64,000 nt of DNA from an uncultured Acidimicrobiaceae bacterium (GTDB lineage Bacteria; Actinomycetota; Acidimicrobiia; Acidimicrobiales; CAIXPF01): the NCBI GenBank assembly GCA_963775055.1, contig CAVZHK010000001.1, forward strand, positions 461,402 to 525,401. The letters are read 5' to 3'. The notes under the pieces were generated by a model that did not search any database, was not told the origin of the DNA, and saw only the letters and a list, made by a program, of their open reading frames with translations. This document shows, one piece after another, positions 4,291 through 50,581 of this stretch (positions are counted from its first letter, which is position 1; the number at the start of each line of letters is the position of its first letter). The position numbers were made by a program, and so were the translations under genes.

Positions 4291-4884
4291 GTGGTCATGA
4301 GTGAGGCGTCGATCGTCGAGCTGTCGGTCCAGGAGGTCGAACGGCTGCGCAAGCGGTACCCGGACCTGCGCCACCGCGGCCGGGTGGTGGCCGTCGGTGT
4401 GGATGACGATCCCACCGCTGACGTCTTGGCCGCGCTGGGGTCGGGACCACTGAGCGCGGTCCGCAAGCCGGCGTCGTGGGAACAGGCCCGTCGCAACCTG
4501 GCCATGCGCCAGCGGATCGTCGAGGAGTTCGGTGCGCTCAGCGCCGCGGAGCTCGGCGAATGGGCCACACCGGACGCCGCCAACGCCCACCAGTACGCCA
4601 GCCGGTTGCGAAAGGCGAACAGGGTGTTCTCCGTGCCTTTCGAAGGACGGGCCCTGTTCCCGGGATTCCAGTTTGATGAGAACGGCCGCCCGCTGAGCGC
4701 TATGGCGGACACGTTGGCCCTGCTGCGGACTCGATTCGGTGACGCCGACTGGGCCGTCGCCAGCTGGTTCACCTCCCCCAACCCCCACCTGCCCGGCAAG
4801 CAGCGGCCGGTGGATCTTCTGGCCACGGACCCCGTCTCGGTCATCGTTGCCGCCCGGCGGGGTGTCACACGCGTCGCCAGCTGA
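4291..4884 (+). CDS. Xre/MbcA/ParS-type antitoxin (DUF2384-like C-terminal domain) of a RES-Xre pair
   Basis: The 197-aa ORF starts at GTG 4291 (or ATG 4297). Its C-terminal WFTSPNPHLPGKQRPVDLLATDPVSVIVAARRG is the typical antitoxin domain. It lies 13 nt upstream of a RES-domain gene. Confidence 0.7.
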   Translation: MVMSEASIVELSVQEVERLRKRYPDLRHRGRVVAVGVDDDPTADVLAALGSGPLSAVRKPASWEQARRNLAMRQRIVEEFGALSAAELGEWATPDAANAHQYASRLRKANRVFSVPFEGRALFPGFQFDENGRPLSAMADTLALLRTRFGDADWAVASWFTSPNPHLPGKQRPVDLLATDPVSVIVAARRGVTRVAS

Positions 4885-4897
4885 ACCGTCCGCCTCG

Positions 4898-5563
4898 ATG
4901 CCGGTAGCCGTACCACCGCGGAAAGCGGCTCTGACCGTGCAGATTTGGGATGCCGGTCGGCGCCTGCTGCGGGTGGCGGACGATCAGTTTGGTGCCACCG
5001 AGTTCAATCCGTGCCAAGGAGAGCCGAGCCGGTTCGCACCCTTGATGGTGGACGGGCGGTGCGTGCCCACGTTGTACGCCGCCGAGACCCTCGACGCGGT
5101 GCTGATGGAGTCGGTGTTCCACGACATTGTGCTCGAACGGGCGGACGGGGCGCCGCCAGAGGTGTACCTGGCCGATCTGGCCACCGTCAGGCGGTCTACC
5201 ATCGCACCCCGCCGGGCGCTGCGTCTCGGGCGGCTGGACGATGACGCCTTGGACCAGTGGGGCGTACTCCGCGCCGAGCTGATCGACACGGACGCCGACA
5301 CCTACCAGCAGACGGTGCGTTGGGCGGCCTACGCCCACCGCCTCGGCGCCGCTGACCGGCAGCCACTCGACGGGCTGATCTGGCATTCCCGGCGCGCCTC
5401 CCTGGGACTCCGTGCCCGTGAGCGCGCCATCGTGCTGTTCGGTGACCGGGTGGCCCGCAAGGACCTACGCAGCAGCGGTATCCCCGTGCCGCTTCTCACC
5501 GCCACCGGCCTCAGCGAACTCGACGCCGTCGCTGACCGCCTCGGAGTCACCCTCGTGCGCTGA
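4898..5563 (+). CDS. RES domain toxin (MbcT/ParT family, NAD-targeting)
   Basis: The internal ATG at 4898 of ORF 4739..5563 is the likely start, because the upstream part overlaps the antitoxin. The layout is RES-like (SRFAP ... LYAAETLDAVLMESVFH). Confidence 0.7.
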   Translation: MPVAVPPRKAALTVQIWDAGRRLLRVADDQFGATEFNPCQGEPSRFAPLMVDGRCVPTLYAAETLDAVLMESVFHDIVLERADGAPPEVYLADLATVRRSTIAPRRALRLGRLDDDALDQWGVLRAELIDTDADTYQQTVRWAAYAHRLGAADRQPLDGLIWHSRRASLGLRARERAIVLFGDRVARKDLRSSGIPVPLLTATGLSELDAVADRLGVTLVR

Positions 5564-11021: not shown

Positions 11022-12128
11022 ATGAAAACTCGCGGGGCAGTGGTGCGGGAAACTCCCGGCAAGTGGGAGATCGTGGACATCGAGTTCGACGAACCCCGCC
11101 AGGGTGAACTGGTGCTGGACATGGTGGCCGCCGGCCTGTGCCACTCCGATGATCACTTCTGCACCGGTGACCTCCCCCCCGGCTTGCTGCCCTTCGCCGG
11201 TGGTCACGAGGGCGCCGGGATCGTGTCCAAGATCGGCCCCAACACCCCCGGGTGGGAGATCGGGGACCACGTGGTGATGTCGTTCCTGCCGGGTTGCGGC
11301 CGTTGCCGTTGGTGCGCCTCGGGCCAGCAGAACCTCTGTGACATGGGCGCCAACACCCTCACCGGTTGCCGGATGGATGGCAGCTACCGGGGTCGGGTCA
11401 ACGGACAGGACATGGGTCAGGCGGCGGGGATCTCCACGTTCTGTGAGCGTTCGCTGGTGGACGTAGCCTCCTGCGTGAAGGTTGACAAGGACATCCCGCT
11501 CGAGAAAGCGGTGTTGGTGGGCTGCGGTGTGGGTACCGGTTGGGGTTCCGCGGTGAACGCCGCGGAGACCAAGCCCGGTCAGACCATCATCATCATGGGC
11601 ATCGGCGGCATCGGCATCCACGCCGTGCAGGGCGCCAAGCACGCTGGCGCCACCCACGTCATCGCCGTGGATCCGGTGGAGTTCAAGCGGGAGATGGCCC
11701 AGAAGGTGGGCGCCACCCACATCTTCGCGACCATGGACGAAGCGGCGGACTTCGCCCGTTCGGTCACCGACGGCCAGGGTGCGGATGCCGCTTGCGTCAC
11801 CACCGGTGTGCTCAAGACCGAGCATGTGCTGCAAGCCTTCAACGCCATCCGCAAGGCCGGCACCGTGGTCGTCACCGGCATTGGCAAGATCGACGAGCAG
11901 GTACAGGTCCCGGCGTTCGAGTTGACGCTGTTCCAAAAGCGCATCCAGGGTGCGTTGTTCGGCGCCTCCAGCCCCAGCCGTGACATCCCGTGGATGCTGC
12001 GGATGTACCAGTCGGGCCAGCTGTTGCTAGACGAGCTGATCACCACCACGTACAAGCTCGATGACATCAACCAGGGCTATGCCGACATGCACGCCGGCAA
12101 GAACATCCGCGGCGTCATCGTTTACTGA
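11022..12128 (+). CDS. zinc-dependent alcohol dehydrogenase, NDMA-dependent ADH-like
   Basis: Translation from the ATG at 11022 reads MKTRGAVVRETPGKWEIVDIEFDEPRQGELVLDMVAAGLCHSDDH and includes GHEGAG and GIGGIG. The upstream part of ORF 10950 has no homology-like character. Confidence 0.85.
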   Translation: MKTRGAVVRETPGKWEIVDIEFDEPRQGELVLDMVAAGLCHSDDHFCTGDLPPGLLPFAGGHEGAGIVSKIGPNTPGWEIGDHVVMSFLPGCGRCRWCASGQQNLCDMGANTLTGCRMDGSYRGRVNGQDMGQAAGISTFCERSLVDVASCVKVDKDIPLEKAVLVGCGVGTGWGSAVNAAETKPGQTIIIMGIGGIGIHAVQGAKHAGATHVIAVDPVEFKREMAQKVGATHIFATMDEAADFARSVTDGQGADAACVTTGVLKTEHVLQAFNAIRKAGTVVVTGIGKIDEQVQVPAFELTLFQKRIQGALFGASSPSRDIPWMLRMYQSGQLLLDELITTTYKLDDINQGYADMHAGKNIRGVIVY

Positions 12129-12154
12129 CAGCCCTTTCCCCCGCGTTCCCCGAT

Positions 12155-12186
12155 CTCCGGCCCATACCGCTCGGTGTGGGCCGGAG
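12155..12186 (+). terminator. putative intrinsic terminator hairpin after the ADH gene
   Basis: The sequence ctccggccca-taccgctcggtg-tgggccggag forms a 10-bp GC-rich stem. It lies 27 nt after the stop and is followed by gcgcgctttggggg, a weak U-tract. Confidence 0.35.
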
Positions 12187-12227
12187 GCGCGCTTTGGGGG
12201 TCCCTCCCCGGGCCACATACCGATTGC

Positions 12228-12730
12228 TCCGGTGACGAAACTCGACCAGGGCCAGCCCAGAACCCTTTACTTCCTCCGGTGACGAAACTCCCGGCCAGTC
12301 CCGCTCCGCCCCACCGTTTCCCCGGTGACGAAACCCGTTCCTGCGCCGTCGGTTGGAGACTGGTGCAGCTGGCGCGGGTTCATGTGTGCAGTTTGGGGGC
12401 GACACCTGCAGACACCGGCGGATTTCGACCGTGCGTGAGCGGGACGGCACCGTACGTCGAGCGTTTCGGTCTGACGGAGACGGGCGTGTCCAAAACCCGC
12501 CACGTGGGCACAAACCGTCCCGTTGCTTGGCTTGTCCGGCGCGCCGCCACGCAGCTCACGGTGAGCTAGCCGAGGCGGGCCGGCAGCATTTCGTCACCGG
12601 AGAAATCCCGACGCCCCGAAACGACACAAGCCGACCGGCCGACCCGACCCGCCGACCCGACCCGACCCGCCTGACCGGACGGACCCGACCCGCCTGACCG
12701 GCCGACCCAGCCAACACATTTCGTCACCGA
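12228..12730. repeat. array of a roughly 16-nt motif yCyCGGTGACGAAAy: 3 direct copies, then 2 inverted copies, around a central inverted-repeat element and a GACCC-rich microsatellite
   Basis: The core ggtgacgaaa occurs at 12231-12240, 12278-12287 and 12324-12333, with spacing of 47 and 46 bp. The reverse core tttcgtcacc occurs at 12589-12598 and 12719-12728. A 20-bp direct repeat gacccgacccgcctgaccgg lies at 12659-12678 and 12682-12701. No convincing ORF is present. Confidence 0.8.
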
Positions 12731-12801
12731 GGAACCCCGATGCCTGCAATCGCAGCGGGTTGCGCGTCCATAGCGAAGCACCAACAGCGGCGGATTCGCG
12801 G

Positions 12802-14124
12802 TCAACCGTGTCGGCGCGGCCCGGCCTCGGCCTGCTGCAACTCGACCAGCACCTCCTCGGTGTGCTGACCCAACTCGGGCGCAGGTCCACGCACCGATAG
12901 ATCCACACCGCGCAGATGGAACGGCGCCGCCACGGTCCGGAACCGCAACCCTTGCGTCGGATCCTCGACCAGTGGGAACAGGCCCATGGCGGCCGCCTGG
13001 GGATCCTCGATCAGCTCCGGCAGCGTCTGCACCGGGGCCCAGATGACACCGGCCTCATCAAAGCGCCGGGCCCACTCGTGACGGGCCTCGGTGGCCAGCA
13101 CCGCATCAAGGGCTTCGATCAATTCCGGTGCGTGCTCCAACCGAGAACCTACCTCGCGGTATCGATCGTCCATGGTCCACTCCAGCCGATCGAGCGCCAC
13201 GCAGACGTTGTCCCAATAGTCACGAGGGCCGGGCATGCACAGCGCCACCCAGCGATCATCGGCGCAGCGGTAACGGCAGGTCAGCGGATTGGGCCAGGCG
13301 CTGCGGGCCGCCTTCGGGGGTTGGGCCCCATCGATCAGCGCCACCGACAGGTCAGTGGCCAGCGTCCACGCCGCTACCTGGAACAGCGCCACCTCCACGG
13401 TCTGAGCCTCTCCCGTGGCATCACGTTGCCGCATCGCCGCCAGCACCGCCGCCAGCAGGGCCAGCGCCGTGGTGTGGTCACCTTGACCCGGGCGGAACCC
13501 TGGCGGCGGCGCACCGGGCTCGCCGATGAGCGCGGACACGCCACCCTTGGCGAAAAACGCCGTCCAGTCATAACCCGGCTTCCCGGCATCGGGCCCGACG
13601 CTGCCATAACCCCCGATCGAGGCGTACACCACCGTCGGGTTGTGCACCACCAGATCGGCCGGGGTCAGGCCATAGCGCTCCCGACGTTCCTCGGTGAGGT
13701 TGGTGAGGAAGATCTCAGCGCCAGCCACCAACCGATGCACCAACGCCACCCCGTCGGGATGTGACAGATCCGCCACCACCGATCGCTTGCCTCGATTGTC
13801 GACCGTGAAATAGGGGTCGGGATGGGGACCGGGACCGGCGCCAGGCCCAAACACCCGGTGGGCGCCGCGCAGGATGTCACCGGTGGGCGGCTCGACCTTG
13901 ATGACGTCGGCGCCCAGATCGGCCATCAACGCCCCGGCCGACGGACCGGCGATCATGTTGGCCACCTCGATGACCCTCACCCCCGACAGCGGCCGCACGG
14001 TACCCACGCCGACCGCGCCAGCACCGACCCGATGGACGCCATCCGCGCCGGGCGCGCCAGGCACCCCGGGATCGACAGCGCCCGGGGTCGAGGAGGGGTT
14101 TCTCGGGTTCGACGACACCACCAT
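12802..14124 (-). CDS. family III CoA-transferase (CaiB/BaiF type)
   Basis: The ORF contains RPLSGVRVIEVANMIAGPSAGALMADLGADVIKVEPPTGD plus the conserved core. The start is uncertain: ATG at 14124, or a GTG further in. The ORF-track start at 14298 would overlap the divergent EEP gene. Confidence 0.75.
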   Translation of the reverse strand: MVVSSNPRNPSSTPGAVDPGVPGAPGADGVHRVGAGAVGVGTVRPLSGVRVIEVANMIAGPSAGALMADLGADVIKVEPPTGDILRGAHRVFGPGAGPGPHPDPYFTVDNRGKRSVVADLSHPDGVALVHRLVAGAEIFLTNLTEERRERYGLTPADLVVHNPTVVYASIGGYGSVGPDAGKPGYDWTAFFAKGGVSALIGEPGAPPPGFRPGQGDHTTALALLAAVLAAMRQRDATGEAQTVEVALFQVAAWTLATDLSVALIDGAQPPKAARSAWPNPLTCRYRCADDRWVALCMPGPRDYWDNVCVALDRLEWTMDDRYREVGSRLEHAPELIEALDAVLATEARHEWARRFDEAGVIWAPVQTLPELIEDPQAAAMGLFPLVEDPTQGLRFRTVAAPFHLRGVDLSVRGPAPELGQHTEEVLVELQQAEAGPRRHG

Positions 14125-14196: not shown

Positions 14197-14901
14197 ATGC
14201 GGGTGCTGTGCTGGAACGTTCGGGGCGCCACCGACGCCAAGTGGGAACACATCACCGGACTCCGCCCTGACGTCGCCGTGCTGGCCGAGGTTGCCCAACA
14301 GCCCCGCCGGTTGCAGGCGTCGCTGTTGGAGCCGGCACCAGCGTGGCAGTGGGTCGGGCTCAACCCGGCCAAGGGGCTGGCGGTGTCCGCCTTTGGGGAC
14401 CGGGCCGAGACGTGCGGGGCGTTGGCTCCTGCGGCCACCGGACGATGGTCGGTGGCGGCCCGGCTGGGATCGCTCACGGTTTTGGGGATCTGGTCCTGCC
14501 CCAGCGCCAGCGGCGGATACGCAACCGAGGTGCTACGGAGCCTCGACGCTCACGCCCGTTGGCTGGACCCTGAGGCCGACGTGATCGTGGCCGGAGACTT
14601 CAACATCGACGGGGCCGGTGCGCTGCGTCGACGATCAGGCGCGTTCAGCAAGGTGATCGACCGATTCCAGGACCTCGGCCTCGCGAGCGCGTACCATACC
14701 GTATGGCAGGAGCCGTTCGGGGCCGAGTCCAGCCCGACCTATTTCCATCACCGCAATCGGGCCCGGCCGTTCCACATCGACTTCTGCTTCCTGTCCGCGC
14801 CGCTACTCGATCGACTGCGGGCGGTGACGGTGGGCAAGTACGAGCAATGGGTCGACAGCGGCATCTCAGACCACGTGCCCCTCACCATCGAGCTCGACTG
14901 A
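14197..14901 (+). CDS. endonuclease/exonuclease/phosphatase (EEP) family protein
   Basis: Translation from the ATG at 14197 reads MRVLCWNVRGATDAKWEHI. Further in are AGDFNID and the C-terminal ISDHVPLTIELD. The upstream 125 codons of ORF 13822 are antisense to the CoA-transferase gene. Confidence 0.7.
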   Translation: MRVLCWNVRGATDAKWEHITGLRPDVAVLAEVAQQPRRLQASLLEPAPAWQWVGLNPAKGLAVSAFGDRAETCGALAPAATGRWSVAARLGSLTVLGIWSCPSASGGYATEVLRSLDAHARWLDPEADVIVAGDFNIDGAGALRRRSGAFSKVIDRFQDLGLASAYHTVWQEPFGAESSPTYFHHRNRARPFHIDFCFLSAPLLDRLRAVTVGKYEQWVDSGISDHVPLTIELD

Positions 14902-14929
14902 CCCCGGCAGGCCGGCCACACACCGACGG

Positions 14930-15632
14930 CTACGCCGCGGCGTGGCCCAGGTACAACTGACGCAGCCGTTCTGGGTCCTGTTGCAGCGGGGCGCACGGGC
15001 CCTCGTAGGCGATGTTGCCCCGTACCAACACGTATGCCCGGTCCCCGTTGGCCAACGCCGAGCGCGGCGAACTGTTCCACCAGCAACACCCCCACGCCGC
15101 CCGCTGCCAAGGTCCGCACGATGGGCATCAGCCGCTTGATGATGGTGGGGGCCAGGCCCAACGACATCTCGTCGAGCATCAACACCTTGGGCTTGGCCAC
15201 CAACGCCCGGGCGATCACCAGCATCTGCTGCTCACCGCCGGAGAGCAAACCGGCCCGGGCATCCCGGCGGGAAGCCAACTCGGGAAACAACTCGAAGGCC
15301 TGTCCGATCTCAGATCTGGGTCCGGCCACCAACAGGTTCTCTTCCAACGTGAGCTCGGCGAAGATGGCCCGACCCTGTTCGATGTGCGCCAGACCCTTAC
15401 GGGCCCGGGCCATACGGGACAGTTTGTTGATGAGCTGCCCGTCCAGCAGGATCTGACCGCTGCCGGCGGGAATAATGCCGGAGATGGCCTCCAGCATGGT
15501 GGTCTTGCCGGCCCCATTGGCACCGAGCAACACCACCACCTCGCCGGCACCCACGGTCAGGTTCACCCCTCGTACGATGGGCGACCCGGCGCGCGGCACC
15601 ACGACCTCGACGAGCTCCAACCCACCGCTCAC
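14930..15632 (-). pseudogene. livF: branched-chain amino acid ABC transporter ATP-binding protein (LivF type), 1-nt frame break near 15058
   Basis: Walker A GANGAGKTT, LSGGEQQML and LMLDE are present. After LLVEQFAAL the listed ORF turns to nonsense. The adjacent frame gives the canonical end LANGDRAYVLVRGNIAYEGPCAPLQQDPERLRQLYLG with a stop at 14930. Confidence 0.8.
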
Positions 15633-17434
15633 AGCTCGGCCCTTGCGCCAGCTGGGCCACCGGCCAGTTCGGCAACCCCGCCGACGGCCTCTTCCAGTTC
15701 CACGTCATCACCGAGGTAGGCCGCGGAGACCCTCGGGTCCGACAGCACCGCCTCAGGGGTTCCCTCGGCGATGACAATGCCGAAGTCCAGCACCGTGATG
15801 CGCGAACACGCACTGGCCACCAGTTCCACGTTGTGCTCGATCAGCACCACCGAGCAACCGAAACGCCTCGGTATATCCCGGATGCGCTGACCCAACGCTG
15901 CCGCTTGCTCGGCACCCAGACCCGCCGCCGGCTCGTCCAGGAAGGCCACCACCGGACGGGACGCCACCGCCGCGGCCACCTCGAGGATGCGGCGTGTGCC
16001 GACATCGATGAACTCGATGGGCTGATCACCCGCTGGCAGCCCGAAGAACCCGAGCAGCTCGTCCACGTGGGCCGCGTCCAGGCGCCGACCGGCGTAGAGG
16101 CTGAGGTATTCCCCCACGGTCAGCTCGGGGATGGCCCGGCCCTGCTGGAAGGTTCGGCGCATGCCGGCGGCCGCACGCTTGTGTGCGACCAGTGCATCTA
16201 TGGGGCTGCCATTGAGCAGGGTCTGGCCCTGGTAACCGGGGACGAAACCGCACACTGCGTCGACCAACGTGGATTTGCCGGCACCGTTGGGCCCGATCAC
16301 GCCCACCACCGTCGCCGGGGGCACCGAGAGATTCACTGCATCGAGCGCGGTGAGGGCGCCGTAGCGCACGGTCAGCCCTCGCAGCTCCAGCACCGGCGCG
16401 TCGCTCGCCGGGCGGGGCGCGGCGGCCACCTCGGGCGGGGGGGCCGGCGACGGCGAGGTGGAGGGTCGGGGGCGGCGCCACGGGAAGGTGGAGGAGATCC
16501 CGGCCCCGCCCTGGGAAAGGGCGTGAATGGCGCCCAACCCGAAAAGGATCTGCGGATACTCCACCGGCCAGCCGATGCGACCGAAAGTCTCCGGGATCAG
16601 CGCCGCCAGGCTCCCTGCCACCACCGCCCCGGACAGGCTTTGGGAACCGAACATCACCGCAGCGGCCACGACGGCGAGAGATCCCAGCGCGGTAAACGAA
16701 CGAACGTCGATGGAACCTTCGAGCTGGGCCGCATACAACCCACCGGCGACACCGGAGATCAACGCGCTCACGATGAACGCTGACAGCTTGACCTGCGGAA
16801 CGGACAGCCCGGCGGCGGCCGTGGCCCGCTCGCTGGAACGCACCGCCCGCCAGGCCTGACCCATCCGGCGCCGGCCCAGCCACTCGAGGGACACGCCAGT
16901 GAGGATCAGCATCACGAAACACAACAGGAAATACATGCGGTTGGAGCTGAACCCCATCGGCCGCAACGGGCGGAACGTGGCGTCAAGGGAACCAGGAAAG
17001 TTGTGGCGGGAGAACACCGAACCGATGGCCACCCCGAAGGCCAGGGTCACCACGGCCAGATTCACGCCCCGCAACCGCAGGGCCAAGCCACCCACCACCA
17101 AACCGGCGGGTACGGCACAGAGGGCCCCGATCACCACCATGATCAGGAACGGCAGGCGCTGATTGACGTTGAACCACAGCACCACCCAGGCGCTGATGCC
17201 GGCAAAGCCCAGCGGGCAGAGCGACAACAGGCCGGCCCGACCAAAAAGCATGCCCACGGAAAGGGACAACATGGCCTGGATCACCGCGAAGGTGGCCGCG
17301 AACTGCCACGTGCTGTCCGGGGCGGTCATACCCACCAGTATGAGCAGGCCCAGCAGAGCGGTGGGGAGACCGAGGCGTCTGATGTCGGCGGAGGCGAAAA
17401 GTCCCTGCGGACCCGACCCGTTAGCGAGCCTCAC
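15629..17434 (-). CDS. fused branched-chain amino acid ABC permease (LivM-like) and ATP-binding (LivG-like) protein
   Basis: The N-terminal roughly 330 aa are hydrophobic and permease-like. A Pro/Ala linker is followed by an ATPase domain (GPNGAGKST, LDEPAAGL, IEHN). The GTG start at 17434 overlaps the livH stop. The ORF-track extension to 17563 lies inside livH. Confidence 0.8.
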   Translation of the reverse strand: MRLANGSGPQGLFASADIRRLGLPTALLGLLILVGMTAPDSTWQFAATFAVIQAMLSLSVGMLFGRAGLLSLCPLGFAGISAWVVLWFNVNQRLPFLIMVVIGALCAVPAGLVVGGLALRLRGVNLAVVTLAFGVAIGSVFSRHNFPGSLDATFRPLRPMGFSSNRMYFLLCFVMLILTGVSLEWLGRRRMGQAWRAVRSSERATAAAGLSVPQVKLSAFIVSALISGVAGGLYAAQLEGSIDVRSFTALGSLAVVAAAVMFGSQSLSGAVVAGSLAALIPETFGRIGWPVEYPQILFGLGAIHALSQGGAGISSTFPWRRPRPSTSPSPAPPPEVAAAPRPASDAPVLELRGLTVRYGALTALDAVNLSVPPATVVGVIGPNGAGKSTLVDAVCGFVPGYQGQTLLNGSPIDALVAHKRAAAGMRRTFQQGRAIPELTVGEYLSLYAGRRLDAAHVDELLGFFGLPAGDQPIEFIDVGTRRILEVAAAVASRPVVAFLDEPAAGLGAEQAAALGQRIRDIPRRFGCSVVLIEHNVELVASACSRITVLDFGIVIAEGTPEAVLSDPRVSAAYLGDDVELEEAVGGVAELAGGPAGARAEL

Positions 17435-18278
17435 TCCACATCTCCTTCCGCTGGGACCACAACAGGGCGGCGGACACCACCACGAAGGAGATCGACGGGC
17501 CGTAGTTGCCCACAACGCCCCAATCGAGGGACATCGACTCGATGATGCCGATGGCCAGCCCACCCACGATCGTCAGGGTGAAGCTGCGCATGGCACCGAA
17601 AACCGCCGCTGCCATGCCCGGGATGACCAGGCTGACCAGGCTTGGGATGGATCCGCGAGTGGGTGCCACCAACAACAACACCATGGTGGTCACTGCGCCG
17701 GCGAGGGCCCACACCAACACCGTGACCCTGGTGGTGTTGACGCCCATCAACTCCGCCGTGACCGGCCGGGCTGACACCGCCCGAAGCTGGATGCCCAGGC
17801 GGGTGTTGTTCAGCACCAGCCACAGGCCGACGCTGAAGATCACGGCGATGAACAGGATCACGATCACCGCGCCGGTGACCGCCACATTGCCGACGTTTCT
17901 GGTGAGCGAGGCGAACAACCGGGGAAAGAACCGTTGGTTGTCGTGAAAGCGCAACAGGCTGGCGGCGAAGATCGAGATGGCCATGGCCATGGACACCGTG
18001 GATCGAACCATGACATTCGACTCACGGAAGAACCTGGCCATGAGCCATCCCTGGAAACCGGTGAGCACCATGGCGATGACCACGGCCGCCGCCATCGCCA
18101 CCCACACGTTCCAGCCCTGCACTTCCAACAGGTCGGTCATGAAATAGACCGCGAACGTGGGCGCGAAGGTCTGGGAGAAGTTGACGACGGCACCCACCCG
18201 GAAGAGCAGCACAATGCAGACTCCCACCAGGGCATAGGTGCCGCCGCCGGCCAGACCGGCGACGGCCAGATCGATCAT
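17421..18278 (-). CDS. livH: branched-chain amino acid ABC transporter permease (LivH type)
   Basis: The 285-aa ORF is hydrophobic. It begins MIDLAVAGLAGGGTYALVGVCIVLLFR and contains the GIQLRAVSARPVTAELMGVN motif. Confidence 0.85.
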   Translation of the reverse strand: MIDLAVAGLAGGGTYALVGVCIVLLFRVGAVVNFSQTFAPTFAVYFMTDLLEVQGWNVWVAMAAAVVIAMVLTGFQGWLMARFFRESNVMVRSTVSMAMAISIFAASLLRFHDNQRFFPRLFASLTRNVGNVAVTGAVIVILFIAVIFSVGLWLVLNNTRLGIQLRAVSARPVTAELMGVNTTRVTVLVWALAGAVTTMVLLLVAPTRGSIPSLVSLVIPGMAAAVFGAMRSFTLTIVGGLAIGIIESMSLDWGVVGNYGPSISFVVVSAALLWSQRKEMWSEAR

Positions 18279-18293
18279 CGGGTCAGGCGCCGA

Positions 18294-19532
18294 TCAGGCT
18301 TTGTGCGGGAAGACCCGCCAATCGGTGCCTGGGGCCACCACGAAGTCCCCATCCTTGTACTGCAGGATCTTGGAGGTGTCGTTGGGCTGCACGCCGCCCA
18401 CGTTGCCGATGAACTTGAACGGCTTGCCCAGCAGCGGGGTTTCGTAGTTGACCGCGGCCAGCGCGGCGTTCACCGTGTCGCGGGTGATCTCGCCCTTGAT
18501 GGACTCGAGCGTGCTGATCATGATGTTGGCGGCGATGTAACCGGCCTCACCGAAGCTGGTGGGGGCGGCACCGTTGGCCTCGACCAGGGCGATGAAGTCC
18601 TTGATCTCGGCCGGGGTCTTGTCATTGATGTTCGTGTAGGGCTCGAACTCGGAGTTGCAATACACGCCCTCGAGGGTGTCACCGGCGGCCTTGGCCAGGG
18701 TCAGCGAATAGCCCGAGGTCAACATGCCGTGAGGTATGCTCTTGGTCAAACCCTGGGGAGCGGCGATGGCCAGGTACGCCTGGTACTCGGGTTCGGTGAA
18801 GGCCAGCAGCACCGCCTCGCAGCCGTCGCTCTTGACCTTGGCCACCGACGGGGTGAGATCGGCGCCGACCTCGGAGAGGATCATGGAGTGCAGCTTGGTC
18901 TTGTTGGCGCCCTCCCACAGGGGGATGAAGACCGTTTTGAACAGCTCGGTGAGCGGCACGTTCTGGCCGACGAAGCAGACCTTCTTCTTGCCCAGGTCAT
19001 GGATGAAGTAATCCATCATGTGCAGCGTGGGGACGAACGGTCCGGTGTTCACGTTGGAGATGGTCGGCGCCTCGGCGCAGGCCATGACCCCGCCCAGCAC
19101 GTTGATCTTCTGCTCGGCGTAGTACTTGCCGTTGGTGGTGCAGTCCACGATGGAACCGCCACAGCACAACCCGACGATCTCGTCGTTCTCGACCAGGCGC
19201 TGGGCGGCGGAGGCGGCCCCGTCAGCGGTGTCCTGGGCGTCCTCGGAGACCAACTCGATGGGCCGGCCGTTGAGGCCGCCCTGGTCGTTGTATCGCTTGA
19301 AGACCATCTTGGCCACCTCGGCGGACTCAGGGAACACGTTGGCCCCCGAGACGCTGGTGACATCACCGATCTTGATGGGCTCGCCAGTGGCGGCATTGGC
19401 GCTGGCGCTGCTGTCGCTAGCAGTGTCGGCGTCATCACCGCCGCAGGCCGCTGCCAAGAGGCTCAGCGCGGCACACAGCGCCACCATCAGGCGCCACGGG
19501 CGCGCCCGCCGGCCCATCTCCGGTTTGATCAT
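18294..19532 (-). CDS. ABC transporter substrate-binding lipoprotein (LivK/type I periplasmic binding fold)
   Basis: The 412-aa ORF has a signal peptide with the lipobox LLAAAC followed by GGDD. It heads the liv-type operon. Confidence 0.8.
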   Translation of the reverse strand: MIKPEMGRRARPWRLMVALCAALSLLAAACGGDDADTASDSSASANAATGEPIKIGDVTSVSGANVFPESAEVAKMVFKRYNDQGGLNGRPIELVSEDAQDTADGAASAAQRLVENDEIVGLCCGGSIVDCTTNGKYYAEQKINVLGGVMACAEAPTISNVNTGPFVPTLHMMDYFIHDLGKKKVCFVGQNVPLTELFKTVFIPLWEGANKTKLHSMILSEVGADLTPSVAKVKSDGCEAVLLAFTEPEYQAYLAIAAPQGLTKSIPHGMLTSGYSLTLAKAAGDTLEGVYCNSEFEPYTNINDKTPAEIKDFIALVEANGAAPTSFGEAGYIAANIMISTLESIKGEITRDTVNAALAAVNYETPLLGKPFKFIGNVGGVQPNDTSKILQYKDGDFVVAPGTDWRVFPHKA

Positions 19533-19767
19533 GTCTTCCCCCTGGGTCCAGTCGGTCCGTCAGATATCTGAGGCCGCTCGGTTTTCTAGCAGCTTGGTTC
19601 ATGTGGCAATGGTCACCCAAGCCGGCCAGACGGCACCGGTGGCTCAATCGTTCCACGGTGCAGAACGAGCGATGGGCTTTCGGCGCTGGGAACCGGGGGT
19701 TAGATTCGCCGTCCGGTGGCCGGGCCAGAACCAGCCCCACCACCACAATTACAGCCAAGGGGGCTCG

Positions 19768-20926: not shown

Positions 20927-21096
20927 CCCGCTCCCCGCAGCGTACCGATCAGTACGCTGAGGGCTGGGCGGTGGTCGAGTCGACGTCGATTCGGTCGGGG
21001 GCCGACACTCCTTCGGCGGAGATCCAGCGAGTCCAGACCGATTCGGCCCGACTCAGCCCGATCCGGCGAGCTTTGAAGAGATTCGGCGGGGTCTAC

Positions 21097-21501
21097 TCAG
21101 CTCAAGGTGGCGGCGCCGGCCCGGGCCACCTCGGCGTCCTCGTCTGCCGAACCACCGGACACGCCGATGGCCCCCACCAGCTCGCCGCGACTGTAGAGCG
21201 GCACGCCACCGCCAAACACGATGAGCCGGGGCACCTTGGTGATGCCGTGCACCAGCGACGGCTCGTTCTCGATGGCGCCCCACCACCGGTCCGTCGGCAT
21301 CCCGCCGAACCCGGCCACGGTGTACGCCTTGTCAGCGGCGATGCCAGCGGACAGGCGGGGGGCGCCGTCCATCCGGGCGCTGAGCACCGGGTCCCCGGCA
21401 GGGTCCGCGACGCACAAGCAGAACAACCTGCCCATGGCCTCGGCCTTGGCCAACGCCGCGGCCAGCACCCGTTGGGCAGCGGCCAGCGAGATGGTGTTCA
21501 T
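21097..21501 (-). CDS. GlcG/HbpS-like (DUF336) heme-binding protein
   Basis: Translation from the ATG at 21501 reads MNTISLAAAQRVLAAALAKAEAMG. Further in are AADKAYTVAGFG and GAIGVSGGSADEDAEVA. Confidence 0.7.
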   Translation of the reverse strand: MNTISLAAAQRVLAAALAKAEAMGRLFCLCVADPAGDPVLSARMDGAPRLSAGIAADKAYTVAGFGGMPTDRWWGAIENEPSLVHGITKVPRLIVFGGGVPLYSRGELVGAIGVSGGSADEDAEVARAGAATLS

Positions 21502-21868
21502 CGGCAGGGTGTCAGACACGGTGGCCTCCAGAATCGTCGCCGCCGACCGTATCGCGACCCCGCGGCGCGGGCCGGAACCGTTCCCTGCCCACGACGATGG
21601 CGAGTTGTGCACCGCGGCCCAGCACGCCTACCCGTCGCGTAACGCAACGACGCTGGTGGGAACGTGGCCACCTGGGAAGCAAGCGGCGGCCCGGTGGCGA
21701 ACTCGCCAAAGTTGCCGAGGCCGCGCTTCGTTCGGCACAGGTCGACCCGTCCCAGCCCACCCCGGGCGCCCAAAGCCCGGTGCCCGGCGGACCGCAACCA
21801 GCTCCGTCACGGCCGCTTGGGATGCCCAGTTCCTGCGCCGGGGACCGCGGCGGCAACGCATCGCGGTT

Positions 21869-22795
21869 TCAGCGCAGCAGGCCGGCGAGGGTTCCGTAGT
21901 AATCGAGCCACCAACCCGACGGCTTGGAGCGATCCACCGCGAAGACCACCAGATGGCTCACGCCCAGCGCCCGCATGGCATCGATCTGATCAAGCCAGGG
22001 CCCGGGACCGGCTTCGGGCACCATGATGCGGGCCTCGATGGGAAACGCTGCCGGGTCGCGATCCGCCGCCTCCAGGTGAGCACGCAACCGGCCCACCGCC
22101 TCGGCCAAGTCCTGGTCGGGCAGCAACAATGCCATCCACCCATCGGCGCAGCGGGCCACCCGCTTGAGCGCGCGATCACCGTTGTTGGTGCCCATCCAGA
22201 TGGGGATGGGATGGGGCGGCAAGGGGTTGATGCCGGTGCGGACCAGCTGGTGCCGCTCGCTGGTGAAGTCGACCAAGGGCTCGCTCCACAGCCGGCGCAG
22301 CACCGAGATCTGCTCCTCCAACATGGCCCCGTTGCGCCCGAACGGTTGGCCCATGCCCTGGTATTCGAACTCGTTCCAGCCCACCCCGACGGACAGGCGC
22401 AACCGGCCGCCGCTGAACACGTTGATGGCCGCGGCCTGCTTGGCCACCAGCGCCGTCTGGCGTTGGGGCAGGACCAGCACACTGGTGGCCAATGTCATGC
22501 GACTGGTCCATGCCGATAGGTACGCGTACAAGGCAAGGATCTCGGTGAAACGGTCCTCGGCGGTGTACGGCGGGCGACCGAACCCGGCTACGGCCTCGCT
22601 CCAACGGGAGGCGTCCACCCCCAGCACGTGGTCGTAGGCGATGAGGTGGTCGTAGCCCAGCTCCTCGATGGCCCGGGCGTAGCCGCTGATCTCGGCGGCG
22701 TCGGTGCCGAAGACGTATTGCGGAAACAGCGCACCCAGGGCCAGATCGGAACCGGTGGTGGTCACGGCGTCTCCTTGCTGCGAGGCGGCGAACAC
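21869..22795 (-). CDS. LLM-class (luciferase-like) F420-dependent oxidoreductase
   Basis: The 308-aa ORF has GYDHLIAYDHV, LATSVLVLPQRQTALVAKQAAAINVFSGGRLRLSVGVGWNEFEY and IWMG. Confidence 0.75.
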   Translation of the reverse strand: MFAASQQGDAVTTTGSDLALGALFPQYVFGTDAAEISGYARAIEELGYDHLIAYDHVLGVDASRWSEAVAGFGRPPYTAEDRFTEILALYAYLSAWTSRMTLATSVLVLPQRQTALVAKQAAAINVFSGGRLRLSVGVGWNEFEYQGMGQPFGRNGAMLEEQISVLRRLWSEPLVDFTSERHQLVRTGINPLPPHPIPIWMGTNNGDRALKRVARCADGWMALLLPDQDLAEAVGRLRAHLEAADRDPAAFPIEARIMVPEAGPGPWLDQIDAMRALGVSHLVVFAVDRSKPSGWWLDYYGTLAGLLR

Positions 22796-29098: not shown

Positions 29099-29237
29099 GT
29101 CCCGCTGCGGGCCTCACCCCGGGGCTGTCGTCACCCGAGGCCGTCGTCACCCGGGCAGCCTTCGCACGGGCCATCACCCGGCCAGATTCACCCCGGCCGG
29201 ATTCAGCCCGACCCGCGTCGGAAGCGGCCTTGGGGCG

Positions 29238-30806: not shown

Positions 30807-30860
30807 CGACCCACCCATCCCCTTGTCGAGGGCAATGCGAAGGCACGAACAAAGCCCATG

Positions 30861-30981
30861 TGTGCAGTTTTGGACAGGGACTCTGGTGACGCCCCCAAAC
30901 TGTCGACAGAGCGCAAGCACTCCGCCACGGAACGTCGACAGTTTGACCCCGTCCGGTCGACCTCGTGTCCAAAACTGCACA
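30861..30981. repeat. nested perfect inverted repeats in the pcaG-pcaB intergenic gap (MITE/REP-like or structured RNA)
   Basis: The outer 16-bp arms are tgtgcagttttggaca at 30861-30876 and tgtccaaaactgcaca at 30966-30981. The inner 12-bp arms are caaactgtcgac at 30896-30907 and gtcgacagtttg at 30934-30945. Confidence 0.85.
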
Positions 30982-31023
30982 GATGAACCGGACGCGGCCG
31001 ACCCAGGCGGGTAATGGCAGCCA

Positions 31024-35927: not shown

Positions 35928-36002
35928 GCGCCTCTAGCTCAACGGCAGAGCAACGGACTCTTAATCCGCAGGTTCTCGGTTCGAATCCGAGGGGGCGCAC
36001 CA
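35928..36002 (+). tRNA. tRNA-Lys (anticodon CTT), encoded CCA; integration target
   Basis: It folds as GCGCCTC-TA-GCTC-AACGGCA-GAGC-A-ACGGA-CTCTTAA-TCCGC-AGGTT-CTCGG-TTCGAAT-CCGAG-GGGGCGC-A-CCA. Confidence 0.9.
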
Positions 36003-36109: not shown

Positions 36110-37204
36110 ATGAGAGGCAGCATTCGAGCCAAGAAGCCCGGGAGCTGGGAGCTTTCGTTCGACGCCGGCCGCGACCCCTTGACTGGGCGACGTCGGCAGC
36201 GGTCCTCCATGTTCCATGGCACTAAGCGCGACGCCGAGCGGGAGCTGCGACGGGTCGTGCGAGATGCCGAAGAGGGCCGTCTCGTCGGCGGCAGCGTGCT
36301 CGATGTCAGACCTGCTCGCCGGATGGCTCGATCTGTGCGCCGACAGCCTCTCACCCACCACCCTGCGCGAGTACCGGCGGCTGGTCGACAAACGCATCGT
36401 GCCTGCGATCGGGGCAGTGGCGGTCACCAAACTGACCACCCACGCCCTCGACGACTACTACCTGGCACTTTCCCGGGATGCCGGACTGTCCGCGGCGTCG
36501 GTCCGTCAGATCCATTCGATCATCCGCCGGGCGCCTCCGCCAAGCAGTGCGCTGGGGCTGGATCGAACACAACGTCGCGGTGAGCGCCACCAAACCACGG
36601 ATGGCCCGATCCACCATCAAGCCTCCCTCCATGGGTCGCGTCCACGAGCTGCTCACCGAATCCGACCGCTACCACCCCTCCTTCGGAGTCCTGGTCCGCG
36701 TAGCCATCGCAACCGGCATGCGACGCGGTGAACTCTGCGGCCTCCGGTGGTGCGACGTCGAGCTCTCACGACGACAACTCCACGTCACCCAAGCCGTCGT
36801 CGCCGTGCCCGACGGCACCGCCATCAAAGCACCCAAGTCCGGCGCGACACGGCGCCTCTCAATCGACCACCAGACCGCAACCATCCTCGAAGACCACCTG
36901 GTGGCGATCCAGCGACAGCGCTGGGCCGCCGGAAACGCCACTCTGAACGGCGACGGGTATGTGTTCAGCCACGCTCTCGACGGCTCACGACCGCTCCACC
37001 CCGACAACGTGACCGCAGCGTTCCGACGGCTACCTTCCAACAACGGCACCGTGCGGCTGCACGACCTACGGCACGCCCACGCCACGCAACTGCTCTCAAA
37101 TGGCGTCGACATCAGCGCCGTCCAGCAGCCGCCTCGGCCACGCGAACTCCTCGACCACACTCAACATCTACGCCCACGCCCTCGAGGAAACCGACGAGCG
37201 CTAG
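36110..37204 (+). pseudogene. tyrosine recombinase/integrase A, three 1-nt frame breaks (about 36300, about 36530, about 37127)
   Basis: The arm-binding N-terminus is MRGSIRAKKPGSWELSFDAGRDPLTGRRRQ. A second frame gives LSPTTLREYRRLVDKRIVPAIG. A third frame gives ATGMRRGELCGLRW and LHDLRHAHAT. A final frame gives RLGHANSSTTLNIYAHALEETDER, with the catalytic Tyr and a stop at 37204. Confidence 0.8.
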
Positions 37205-37624
37205 CCTCAGTCATCGGAGCGTTGCTAGGGCCAACCTGAACCGGCGACTGTCGGGTTATGAGCGATGGCGGGCGGTGGCGGACCTTGCTGGCCTGCACGA
37301 ACCACGGTTGTTCACCGTTCGCCGGCCCCCCTTCGCCGTGTGAGCCTACGGGGCGGTAGATGACCGATTGATGTCAGGCGTCGCTGAGGATCGCTCCCGA
37401 GCTTGGGTGATCGTCGTTCCCGGGTGGCTAGCGCCGTCGTTTCCGAGCGGGCCAACCGGGCCACTCCGCCGGCACCCGAGCGCGGCCGACCGGCCTTGCC
37501 GGGTGGTGATATCGAGCGGTCGTGCTGGACGACCGAGTGGGGCGGAGGGGGTGCGAACTCAAGCGCAACTAGCACCGGATCGAGACCACTTGCTAGAGAC
37601 TAGCGGGCTCGATTTCTCGCGTAT

Positions 37625-41179: not shown

Positions 41180-41690
41180 TTACGTGGTTGTAGTTTGTTT
41201 GCGGCGAGGCTTCAGTGGAGTTCCAGCGATGGTGTAGTTCCATTCGCCGTGGAAGGCGTGTCCGGTGAGCGGGACGGCTTGGAGTTCGGCGTCGGTGACC
41301 TTGACACCTTTGGGGTAGCTGCCGGTGTCGCGTTCGGCTCGGACCTTGAGCCGGTACGGGTGGTGGTGGCGGCGATGAGGTCGACAACGACTTCGTGGCT
41401 GGTGAGGGGACGGCCTCGCCAGTTTATTGTGATGTGGGAGAAGAGGCGGTGCTCGATCCGGTTCCATTTCGACGTTCCGGGAGGGAAGTGACAGACCGTG
41501 ATGATGAGACCGGTCCGAGCGGCGAGCTCGCCGAGCTCGGCGTTTCCAGAGGCGACCGCGGTAGCTGTTGGATCCTCCTGCATCGCCGGTGATCAGCAGC
41601 CGTTTCGCGTTCGGGTACAACACCTGGCCGGCGCTGTGCCACCACCTGGCGATGCTCGACGCCGCGAACGCCGCGGTGTCCCCGTCGCTC
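41180..41690 (-). pseudogene. ISAzo13-family (Rhodopirellula-type DDE) transposase, C-terminal fragment with frame break
   Basis: The fragment has DTAAFAASSIARWW, LLITGDAGGSNSYRGRLWK, PPGTSKWNRIEHRLFSHITINWRGRPLTSHEVVVDLIAATTT and GEWNYTI. These are spread over two frames, and the N-terminal half is absent. Confidence 0.7.
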
Positions 41691-42208
41691 ACATGTTTCT
41701 CGAAGCGCTCGGTCAACAAGCAATCGAATCAGGCATGAAAGTCGCCTGGTTCACGCTCGAAAACCTCGGCGGCTTGGTCCGCCGCCACCGAGCCGATGAC
41801 ACCGTCACCCGAGCCGTGACCCGCATCCTGCACTCCGAACTCGTCGTGATAGATGACATCGGGCTTCTCCCCGTCAGCCCCGACGCCGCCGAAGGCCTCT
41901 ACCGCCTCGTCGACGCCGCCTACGAGAAACGCTCCATCGCCGTGTCATCCAACCTGCACCCCTCAGGATTCGACGGAAATCATGCCCAAAACCTCGCCGG
42001 CGCCACCGTCGACCGACTACTCCACCACGCCCACCTCTGCCTCACCACCGGCGACAGCGTCCGCCTCCAACAAGCAACCACCGGAATTGGAGTCAAGCCC
42101 CTGGCCTAAACACCGCGCAGCCCTGGTGGCCACCACCGCGCAACTCTGGTGGCCACCACCGCGAGGTTCCCATGACCGCCACCGCGCAGAAACCCGTGGC
42201 CATTGACA
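41691..42208 (+). mobile_element. IS21-family fragment: 3' part of the istB helper ATPase plus the repeat-rich IS end
   Basis: The IstB-like sequence is FLEALGQQAIESGMKVAWFTLENL ... VVIDDIGLLPVSPDAAEGLYRLVDAAYEKRSIAVSSN ... ATVDRLLHHAHL, with a stop at 42109. It is followed by ctggtggccaccaccgcg x2 and a related third copy, ending ...cattgaca at 42208. Confidence 0.7.
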
Positions 42209-44362: not shown

Positions 44363-44669
44363 ATAGCGACATCTGGCATCAACTTCACCTCGACGCCATC
44401 AACTCCAACTACACCACTGGCCACTGGGTCGGCCTCCATATCGAACACTGGGCACAACCCAATGAGTCCCGCCCTTTGGGGCCAGCAAGCCGCTGCTGAC
44501 CACAGCCTCGGCGAGGGCCCGTGTGTGTGTGTGTCGGCTTCGCATCTCACGGAAAATCTCACGCACTCGTTGCGACACGCTAACAATGGGCACGACGGGA
44601 CGAACTCGCTGCGGACAGAACGCCTGCTCAGGGCGTCGCGAGGCGTCTCAACGGACGGCTGTCAAGGCC

Positions 44670-44713
44670 CTCTTAATCCGCAGGTTCTCGGTTCGAATCC
44701 GAGGGGGCGCACC
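44670..44713 (+). repeat. att repeat copy 2 (44-bp core of the tRNA-Lys 3' end)
   Basis: The sequence ctcttaatccgcaggttctcggttcgaatccgagggggcgcacc is identical to 35958-36001. The next 20 nt (gcaaacgggcaggtcagggc) are a diverged version of the tail seen in copies 1 and 3. The upstream 30 nt retain a weak D-arm-like ctcaacgg. Confidence 0.9.
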
Positions 44714-44828
44714 GCAAACGGGCAGGTCAGGGCGGTAGTGGACGCCCGGAGCGGCCGATCACCCGGCAGAAAGTTTGGCGCCAGCGGCGCGTTAGACCGA
44801 CTGATAGACACCCCGATAGACTGCGCCG

Positions 44829-50332: not shown

Positions 50333-50581
50333 TTGGCGCCTAACTTGGCGCCAAACTCCACGGACTGGGGCCCACCAAACCGCGCTAGGCGGACGACCGT
50401 CTGTACAGAAGCCCACGTGAGAGCACTAGATCCCACCCACTGGACAGTCCTTTCGGGACTCTTAATCCGCAGGTTCTCGGTTCGAATCCGAGGGGGCGCA
50501 CCACAAACATGCAGGTCAGAGTCGGTGCGACCCTCTGCTGTAAGCCATCGTGGTTGCTTTGGCGCCTAACTTGGCGCCAAA
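50333..50581. repeat. 23-bp direct repeat ttggcgcctaacttggcgccaaa (50333-50355 and 50559-50581) bracketing att copy 3
   Basis: The two copies are identical when read from the sequence. Each contains the perfect palindrome TTGGCGCCAA. Confidence 0.85.
50456..50523 (+). repeat. att repeat copy 3 (68 bp identical to copy 1)
   Basis: See copy 1. There is no 5' half of a tRNA upstream. Confidence 0.9.

Follow-up and report, generated by a model that had tools for sequence, protein, structure and literature searches.

SpdA proteins of Streptomyces plasmids have a common N-terminal zinc-finger region and are associated with sps, a 12-bp palindrome (CGTCACGTGACG, sometimes with a central T) that occurs in one to three copies per spdA gene and either encodes the residues SRDD/E or sits upstream of the gene (Thoma et al. 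2014, PMC4170104). Purified pIJ101 SpdA2 shifts DNA in gel-shift assays only when sps is present, and loss of spdA2 or of sps lowers segregational stability (PMC4170104); SpdA is furthermore reported to interact with TraB and with the Spd spreading proteins (PMC4447253). The system is thus already known and is conserved on many Streptomyces plasmids, its function being debated between stability, spreading and a link to the TraB DNA pump. Here we describe a non-coding locus in a 64,000-nucleotide stretch of the genome of an uncultured Acidimicrobiaceae bacterium (the window; contig CAVZHK010000001.1, positions 461,402 to 525,401), in which a motif containing one half of an sps-type site is repeated in polar order between an alcohol dehydrogenase (ADH) gene and a convergent CoA-transferase gene. 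With a probability of roughly 0.7 we consider this locus to be an orphan array belonging to a family of SpdA-type half-site arrays specific to its lineage.

The likeness to SpdA/sps as found on pIJ101, pSN22, pJV1 and pSVH1 lies in an N-terminal zinc-ribbon DNA-binding module common to SpdA2 and to a zinc-ribbon protein of about 190-230 aa from Acidimicrobiales, for which we use the working name ZRP, in a 9-nt half-site (GTGACGAAA) common to both systems, and in the placement of repeated sites in or directly before the gene of the binding protein, which is likewise seen at the ZRP loci of relatives. There are however several differences, in that the sites described here are isolated half-sites with another 5' extension (GTTTCTCC) rather than 12-bp palindromes, that they form polar arrays of up to eight copies with a period of 37-60 bp to which opposed copies are added, that the ZRP has an additional conserved Cys/His C-terminal domain, and that the arrays are chromosomal, dispersed and often gene-less in hosts belonging to the Acidimicrobiales and not to Streptomyces. 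The window itself shows neither palindromic sites nor an adjacent spdA-type gene nor a plasmid context, and the conserved N-terminal zinc finger of SpdA proteins, about 40-50 aa long, is present in the ZRPs of its relatives.

Iteron-type plasmid origins such as those of pSC101, F, P1 and pPS10 carry direct iterons together with an inverted partial iteron at the rep promoter, and the arrays resemble these in having co-oriented binding sites followed by inverted copies beside the gene of the binder, as well as in their variable copy number. However, no Rep-type protein, no AT-rich unwinding region (the GC content of the locus is 0.68) and no plasmid context are found here, the spacing of about 46 bp, irregular across loci, differs from the approximately 22 bp of iterons, and there are many loci per chromosome. 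The REP/BIME and REPIN extragenic repeats, which are accompanied by a RAYT gene and of which REPs typically occur in hundreds of copies, are similar in that a short conserved extragenic word is found in both orientations, often between convergent genes, and in that a protein gene is flanked by repeats. The unit of the arrays is however neither a palindrome nor a hairpin, the clusters are strictly polar, searches of Pfam, NCBIfam and PDB assign the ZRP to no HUH or transposase family, and at least eight array loci were found in the one examined metagenome-assembled genome (MAG), F1F2.bin.495, as opposed to hundreds of copies. Finally, the ends of transposons with several subterminal sites (Tn7, Mu, IS21 and Tn402) likewise consist of inward-facing repeats in asymmetric sets, but transposase, conserved termini, target duplication and conserved cargo are all lacking here.

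Motif copies of the window and related arrays

The window contains five exact GGTGACGAAA cores, three on the forward strand at 12231, 12278 and 12324, hence at intervals of 47 and then 46 bp, and two on the reverse strand at 12589 and 12719. All five fall inside 12231-12728, that is within less than 500 bp, and GGTGACGAAA is found nowhere else in the 64 kb, where 0.08 occurrences would be expected by chance and none of 100 shuffles reached five. The initial annotation, made from the letters of the window, had claimed three direct copies at 46-47-bp spacing and two inverted ones, and these are thereby confirmed as exact cores that exceed the expectation from base composition. The longer 15-mer given there, yCyCGGTGACGAAAy, fits all five places in the 64-kb window with no or one mismatch, and its only other matches (8491 and 39198, two mismatches each) are at chance level. 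In agreement with this, a 20-nt family weight matrix derived from the copies of relatives reaches its cut-off of 12 bits at only these five sites of the window (Table 1), which are arranged in the pattern '+++--'. The inverted copies are complementary to the direct ones across 16-19 nt, I1 pairing with D1 over 19 nt at 95%. The form of I2, a site followed by a GGAG-like word and an ATG, is that of the gene-proximal copies of relatives, and the 42-codon open reading frame (ORF) that follows it is non-coding by composition. The CGTCACC words at 29130-29160 and 30886-30892, which had been put forward as related, cannot be upheld as such: they score below 12 bits and do not fit the extended motif, and we therefore treat them as chance occurrences of a 7-mer that our own base-composition estimate expects about 15 times per 64 kb.

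Comparable arrays are dispersed in the genomes of relatives. When one genome per species was scanned for pairs of CGGTGACGAAA copies 25-50 nt apart, 85 loci were obtained, many low-GC matches among which are coding repeats or chance, and as the collection scans were keyed to the exact core, they cover only families that have it. Among Acidimicrobiales and Acidimicrobiia, the number of multi-copy arrays per MAG is at least eight in F1F2.bin.495, six in BC3.65, five in BP_73 and three in SJ307, and in a crude and incomplete survey by third-position GC the arrays lie outside confident genes. The consensus of the family is GTTTCTCC-GGTGACGAAA, with 18-20 nt per copy, and an array has between one and eight co-oriented copies at a period of 37-60 bp, which is near-constant within a locus and differs between loci. 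Since the spacers of young arrays are near-identical, the copies appear to arise by tandem duplication. One or two inverted copies are found downstream of the direct block, and the order '+..+ -..-' holds in all 21 clusters that have both orientations (21/21); 16 of the 23 inverted copies read TTTCGTCACC-GGAGAAAC-N3-5-ATG. The DNA between the two blocks is 31-807 bp long, unrelated across lineages and often endowed with short tandem repeats of its own, and an all-against-all comparison of the interiors revealed no interior or cargo shared across lineages. The window, with more than two CTCCGGTGACGAAA-type sites in a co-oriented block that is followed by an opposed block, belongs to this family, with which its '+++--' pattern, its inserted element and its microsatellite are likewise in agreement.

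The ADH of the window is 98% identical at the amino acid level to protein P0001 of the Acidimicrobiales MAG F1F2.bin.495, the closest homologue found, and the top ADH homologues all belong to Acidimicrobiia; an exact look-up of the window ADH itself gave no record with either start codon. The syntenic locus of F1F2.bin.495 (L086) has an identical gene order and a genic nucleotide identity of 83-90%, and its ADH/CoA-transferase spacer of 318 bp contains no motif copies, from which it follows that the array is not a conserved feature of that intergenic region. An orphan array (L052) is instead found elsewhere on the same F1F2.bin.495 contig, and the direct units of the window resemble its first three in order and in their 46/47-bp spacing. 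In this comparison 50 of 54 motif columns are identical as opposed to 29 of 56 spacer columns (Fisher p = 1.5e-6), so the sites are kept as the spacers diverge, which on the alignment of these two arrays points to maintenance of the sites by purifying selection during drift of the spacers.

Some arrays of relatives stand beside genes of other kinds. In the MAG F1F2.bin.335 (L040, 5410-5830), eight copies that all have the orientation with GGAG and recur every 57 or 60 bp, both multiples of three, are in frame with and directly 5' of a gene for a MoxR-like AAA ATPase, and translation of this array could yield a repetitive N-terminal extension. In other Acidimicrobiia (L087/L088/L090, about 4695-5425), a degenerate array with five direct copies and two inverted ones is found 5' of a SnoaL-like gene. 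This gene is followed by one for a paralogous NDMA-type ADH with 86% identity to the ADH of the window, so that a similar array again adjoins a similar gene, here on its opposite side.

The zinc-ribbon protein and its relation to SpdA

At many loci the ORF that follows the inverted copy encodes a ZRP, with the signature CxxC...GRRPxYCxxxCRQRAYEARRR near the N-terminus and a second conserved His/Cys cluster. When sites are counted as CTCCGGTGACGAAA with up to two mismatches, 11 of the 12 distinct full-length ZRP genes are preceded by at least two within 1 kb, invariably in the polar order, and for the twelfth gene no more than 29 nt of sequence are available upstream; the density of sites is 4.97 per kb in the 1 kb upstream of ZRP genes versus 0.015 per kb elsewhere. 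The layout is kept even among ZRPs that are 37-45% identical to one another. The ZRP genes occur singly amid housekeeping or metabolic genes, for example between groEL and guaB, after a spacer of 600-750 bp, and no rep, traB, spdB or integrase gene was found in the vicinity of the window locus or of any ZRP locus.

In intact loci the ZRP start lies about 115-230 bp past the last inverted copy, and a second conserved element is found at the annotated start, consisting of cTTCGCTGTCACACCCC, TACGGT, 6-7 nt and ATG. This element looks like a putative promoter of a leaderless message and contains a near half-site (CTGTCACACC). At six independent loci (L066, L070, L082, L008/L027, L051/L092 and L174) the ATG of the inverted copy furthermore shares the reading frame of ZRP and precedes the annotated start by 31-70 codons, the frame being open in six of seven cases, which hints at a long form of ZRP in addition to a short, leaderless one. 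ZRP belongs to no family in Pfam or NCBIfam, where only weak treble-clef matches are obtained, and has no significant sequence or fold match in PDB; its AlphaFold model has a mean pLDDT of 79. A word-indexed search gave 30 ZRP clusters, and an exhaustive one 93 representatives at E up to 1e-10, most of which span both domains.

The relation to SpdA is apparent from the N-terminal module, which aligns with pIJ101 SpdA2 over 42 columns in hhalign (probability 97.6%, E 3.6e-12) and with 56% identity across 34 residues in BLASTP. This module alone is present in many other small proteins from metagenomes, and recurring 'peptides' upstream of such genes, FVTVT and RHVTKSVT, are the nucleotide words TTCGTCAC and GTGACGAA in translation. 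Across 46 metagenome loci with SpdA-like genes, the GTGACGAA/TTCGTCAC 8-mer shows an enrichment of about 12-fold within 300 nt upstream. Usually it either forms the palindrome TTTCGTCAC(T)GTGACGAAA at the start codon or is present in two copies inside the ORF, where it encodes SRDE. The spdA2 gene of pIJ101 has two sps sites, ACGTCACGTGACGAAAT and CCGTCACGTGACGAAAC(TCGG), with which the window copies CCGGTGACGAAACTCG and CCGGTGACGAAAC-TCG can be compared. Extended sps is an 18-bp palindrome, TTTCGTCAC|GTGACGAAA, and the motif core is one half of it. Taken together, the identity of the half-site and the homology to SpdA2 mean that the window motif holds one sps-type half-site and that the lineage encodes a matching module beside its arrays. 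The window copies read CTCCG|GTGACGAAA and thus have the right palindrome half only, without an adjoining CGTCAC, and full sps palindromes are absent from the window locus. In the literature, searches with 10-mer strings gave nothing relevant and it was the palindrome string that led to the SpdA paper; no description of chromosomal polar half-site arrays, of the two-domain ZRP family or of an occurrence in Acidimicrobiales was found.

What is new is accordingly that the SpdA-type module and half-site are also present in a distant class of actinobacteria, where they are chromosomal, form large polar arrays under purifying selection and are accompanied by several dedicated paralogous proteins, which suggests that the module acts generally on DNA rather than in a plasmid-specific manner. 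The arrays and ZRPs of Acidimicrobiales offer a second, independent system in which the function of SpdA/sps may be studied. For annotation, they account for one type of striking intergenic repeat seen in MAGs of Acidimicrobiales and provide a putative DNA-binding role and target site for about 90 clusters of 'hypothetical' proteins.

The window array and competing explanations

No ZRP or SpdA gene was found in the window by tblastn or by a scan for the Cys motif, and neither the CTGTCACACC element nor a CTGTCACACCCC-type element is present at the locus. Since only 65 bp separate I2 from the stop codon of the CoA-transferase gene, both the ZRP gene and its proximal promoter are missing. Other orphan arrays like the window copy are L052, L071, L050 and L047, and the window copy is most likely a truncated or gene-less version of the cassette found upstream of ZRP genes. 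An intact cassette consists of one to eight co-oriented half-sites, then one or two opposed ones, and then the ZRP start with CTGTCACACC at the probable promoter. The co-oriented copies with their period of 37-60 bp arise by tandem duplication, and ZRP would load onto co-oriented and opposed sites alike to form a polar nucleoprotein array, which may either control the adjacent gene, as in autoregulation, or mark the DNA in the way in which SpdA/sps promotes the stability of plasmids. The cassette of the window would have lost its ZRP gene, and it has gained an element resembling a miniature inverted-repeat transposable element (MITE) as well as a microsatellite. Putative ZRP paralogs encoded elsewhere in the genome probably continue to bind its sites in trans. 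The 5' extension GTTTCTCC may have a role of its own in these sites. The alternative that the initial annotation had offered of a multi-operator regulatory region comes close to what is found, namely an sps half-site core and arrays directly upstream of SpdA-like genes in relatives; the window copy itself has no cognate gene next to it.

A more far-reaching version of this reading, which we put forward only tentatively, is that Acidimicrobiales took the SpdA/sps plasmid-stability module into the chromosome, where paralogous ZRPs might recognize asymmetric 18-nt sites, each built on one sps half, in polar arrays at a dozen places or more, in part before ZRP and other genes and in part, as in the window, by themselves between genes. 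The arrays could then act as oriented loading platforms, either in a looping regulon or in centromere-like marking or guidance. Such a chromosomal platform, if real, would be a new role both for SpdA and for any type of bacterial operator.

Several observations speak against the orphan-array reading. In F1F2.bin.495 at least six arrays are without a ZRP gene as opposed to three with one, and some arrays precede unrelated genes such as those for MoxR or the SnoaL-ADH pair, so that a description as ZRP operator may be too narrow. The search for ZRP in the source genome covered the 64-kb window only. The gel-shift data on SpdA2 concern full sps palindromes and not isolated half-sites, and the half-sites furthermore face the opposite way to the palindrome, with their AAA tails inward, which means that the array is not simply a split sps. 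In addition, the 5' extension holds the word CTCC/GGAG, which would serve as a ribosome-binding site before the ATG in the 16 of 23 inverted copies mentioned above, and because of this double use some weight has to be left on a role in RNA or translation.

The inward-facing layout had also led the initial annotation to propose transposon ends in the style of Tn7, Mu or IS21, and the locus might accordingly be a pair of non-autonomous transposon ends, with multiple transposase-binding sites on one side and one or two on the other. The asymmetric ends with inward-facing sites agree with this, as do the presence of the array in the window and its absence from the syntenic site of the related genome, the similar three-unit array at another place in that genome, and the fact that a spacer between convergent genes is a typical landing place for small mobile DNA. 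No transposase was however found within or beside any of about 40 loci, the interiors are unrelated in sequence and vary in length (31-807 bp), and copy number and period vary in a manner that fits local tandem duplication. ZRP, moreover, is a small SpdA2-homologous zinc-ribbon DNA binder without a match to any nuclease or recombinase family. No target duplication is seen at the edges of the locus in the window, and with genomes that are only 83-90% identical in DNA, presence and absence are weak evidence for recent movement. We therefore find transposon ends improbable and prefer an orphan SpdA-type array.

An action at the RNA level is equally improbable. The direct and inverted copies could form a helix of 18-20 bp that hides a GGAG ribosome-binding site and a start codon, or could give rise to a multi-headed antisense RNA, and the GGAG-ATG form of the inverted copies, the in-frame ATG before ZRP at six independent loci and locus-specific flanks common to direct and inverted copies (for example in L012, L023 and L069) are in agreement with such a function. 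On the other hand, the predicted fold of the window locus is no more stable than that of shuffled sequences (-212.1 versus -210.3 +/- 7.1 kcal/mol, z = -0.25), it has no match in Rfam at E up to 5, and the window's inverted copies are not followed by a gene. Furthermore, the core that never varies is a half-site recognized in DNA by a family of proven DNA-binding proteins, and this core is kept without GGAG in some lineages (L012, L013 and L046).

Likewise improbable is that the locus is debris of an integrated actinomycete conjugative plasmid or integrative conjugative element; an sps region would then be the origin of the half-sites, and clt-like 8-bp TraB sites that of the GACCC(G) run. SpdA/sps has so far been described on Streptomyces plasmids only, clt loci consist of direct 8-bp repeats, and integrated elements are present at tRNA-Lys within the window. 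The clt unit of pSVH1, which we take to be GACCCGGA, may be likened to the GACCCG units of the run, and a literature search for GACCCGGA together with TraB gave unrelated papers only. The plasmid and conjugation genes named above are however missing near this locus and the ZRP loci, the neighbours of the arrays being housekeeping or metabolic genes (groEL, guaB), the sites are not full palindromes, and viral contigs hold nothing comparable. The tandem repeats of other arrays have unrelated units, and the GACCC run thus looks like the product of local slippage. The remaining candidates are rejected, namely a phage origin by two scans of viral contigs without a relevant match, a CRISPR array by the repeat length of 18-20 nt, spacers of 26-29 nt, inverted copies and self-similar spacers of young arrays, the mycobacterial repeat families MIRU and REP13E12 by the Acidimicrobiales lineage of the window as seen from its ADH homologues, and a degraded gene by the non-coding composition of the ORFs and by tblastn, which found no remnant of ZRP or SpdA.

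Flanking genes and other features of the window

The features of the locus are collected in Table 1. Its placement between the ADH gene and a convergent CoA-transferase gene, the bracketing of an inverted-repeat element by the motif copies, the run of GACCC(G) units and the lack of a coding ORF had all been noted in the initial annotation and stand after closer analysis. As to the last of these, the ORFs of the locus have a third-position GC of 0.64-0.76 versus 0.80-0.86 in the flanking genes, and none is of the coding type. The CoA-transferase is identified by its L086 ortholog, which matches Pfam CoA_transf_3.

Table 1. Features of the array locus and of the tRNA-Lys region, in window coordinates (scores in bits refer to the 20-nt family weight matrix)
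Feature	Position	Strand	Remarks
ADH, NDMA-dependent-type zinc alcohol dehydrogenase, upstream flank	11022-12128	+	third-position GC 0.86
Terminator-like hairpin of the ADH gene	12155-12186	+	inverted repeat I7, 15-nt arms, 93% complementary
D1, direct copy (ATTGCTCC-GGTGACGAAA-CT)	12223-12242	+	30.0 bits; exact core
D2, direct copy (CTTCCTCC-GGTGACGAAA-CT)	12270-12289	+	29.5 bits; exact core
D3, direct copy (GTTTCCCC-GGTGACGAAA-CC)	12316-12335	+	29.9 bits; exact core
MITE-like inverted-repeat element, diverged copy	12380-12505		aligns end to end with the intact copy at 30857-30985
I1, inverted copy (CATTTCGTCACCGGAGAAAT on + strand)	12587-12606	-	34.2 bits, highest-scoring copy
GACCC-rich tandem repeat	12633-12708		Tandem Repeats Finder: period 23 x 3.6, period 5 x 11.6
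I2, inverted copy (CATTTCGTCACCGAGGAACC on + strand)	12717-12736	-	23.8 bits; ATG at 12740
Family III CoA-transferase, convergent flank	12802-14052 (start approximate)	-	stop at 12802
Integrase and transposase ORFs of the tRNA-Lys region	36436-37239, 44820-46280, 41492-42109, 51406-52560		

The hairpin of the ADH gene forms the left border of the variable region. It is retained in the F1F2.bin.495 spacer, homology ends just beyond it, and the rest of that spacer cannot be aligned; on the other side, the last approximately 15 codons of the CoA-transferase gene are unlike those of the ortholog and nucleotide homology restarts at about 12850. The MITE-like element is situated between the direct and the inverted motif copies, and its alignment includes CATGTGTGCAGTTT at the left end and CGTGTCCAAAAC at the right end. 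Such elements are about 125-130 bp long with terminal inverted repeats CATGTGTGCAGTTTTGGACA...TGTCCAAAACTGCACAGATG, the copy at 30857-30985 being intact and the one in the array locus 76% identical to it in aligned columns; no copies were found among about 180 retrieved loci of relatives. The GACCC repeat sits between I1 and I2.

Searches of the locus for RNA genes and signals gave no match in Rfam 15, either at gathering score or at E up to 5, and no sigma-70 promoter, and the single terminator-like site is at chance level. ARAGORN called a tRNA-Pro (cgg) of 87 nt on the reverse strand at 12629-12715, where the Rfam tRNA model is silent at the same E limit; the call is therefore rejected and regarded as a false positive from the GC-rich repeat.

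Elsewhere in the window, the 3' half of a tRNA-Lys gene (35928-36002), with about 20 nt more, is repeated twice downstream, at 44667-44734 and 50456-50523, the identity being 88% and 100%. The first two copies are followed by ORFs for tyrosine integrases, and ORFs for transposases of the IstB(IS21)-like and Mutator types are found close by. The arrangement resembles a tandem of two integrative elements at tRNA-Lys, and no SpdA-like gene is present in either. In comparison with the syntenic F1F2.bin.495 contig, the window has extra segments at 14898-19674 (about 4.8 kb) and 20932-22789 (about 1.8 kb), between blocks of conserved genes. That contig in turn has another small inverted-repeat element (AATGGTGGATTGGTGGCAG ... 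CTGCCACCAATCCACCATT) at the position of the array, at about 7272-7392 of L086, and the convergent spacer between the ADH and CoA-transferase genes thus seems to collect small mobile DNA.

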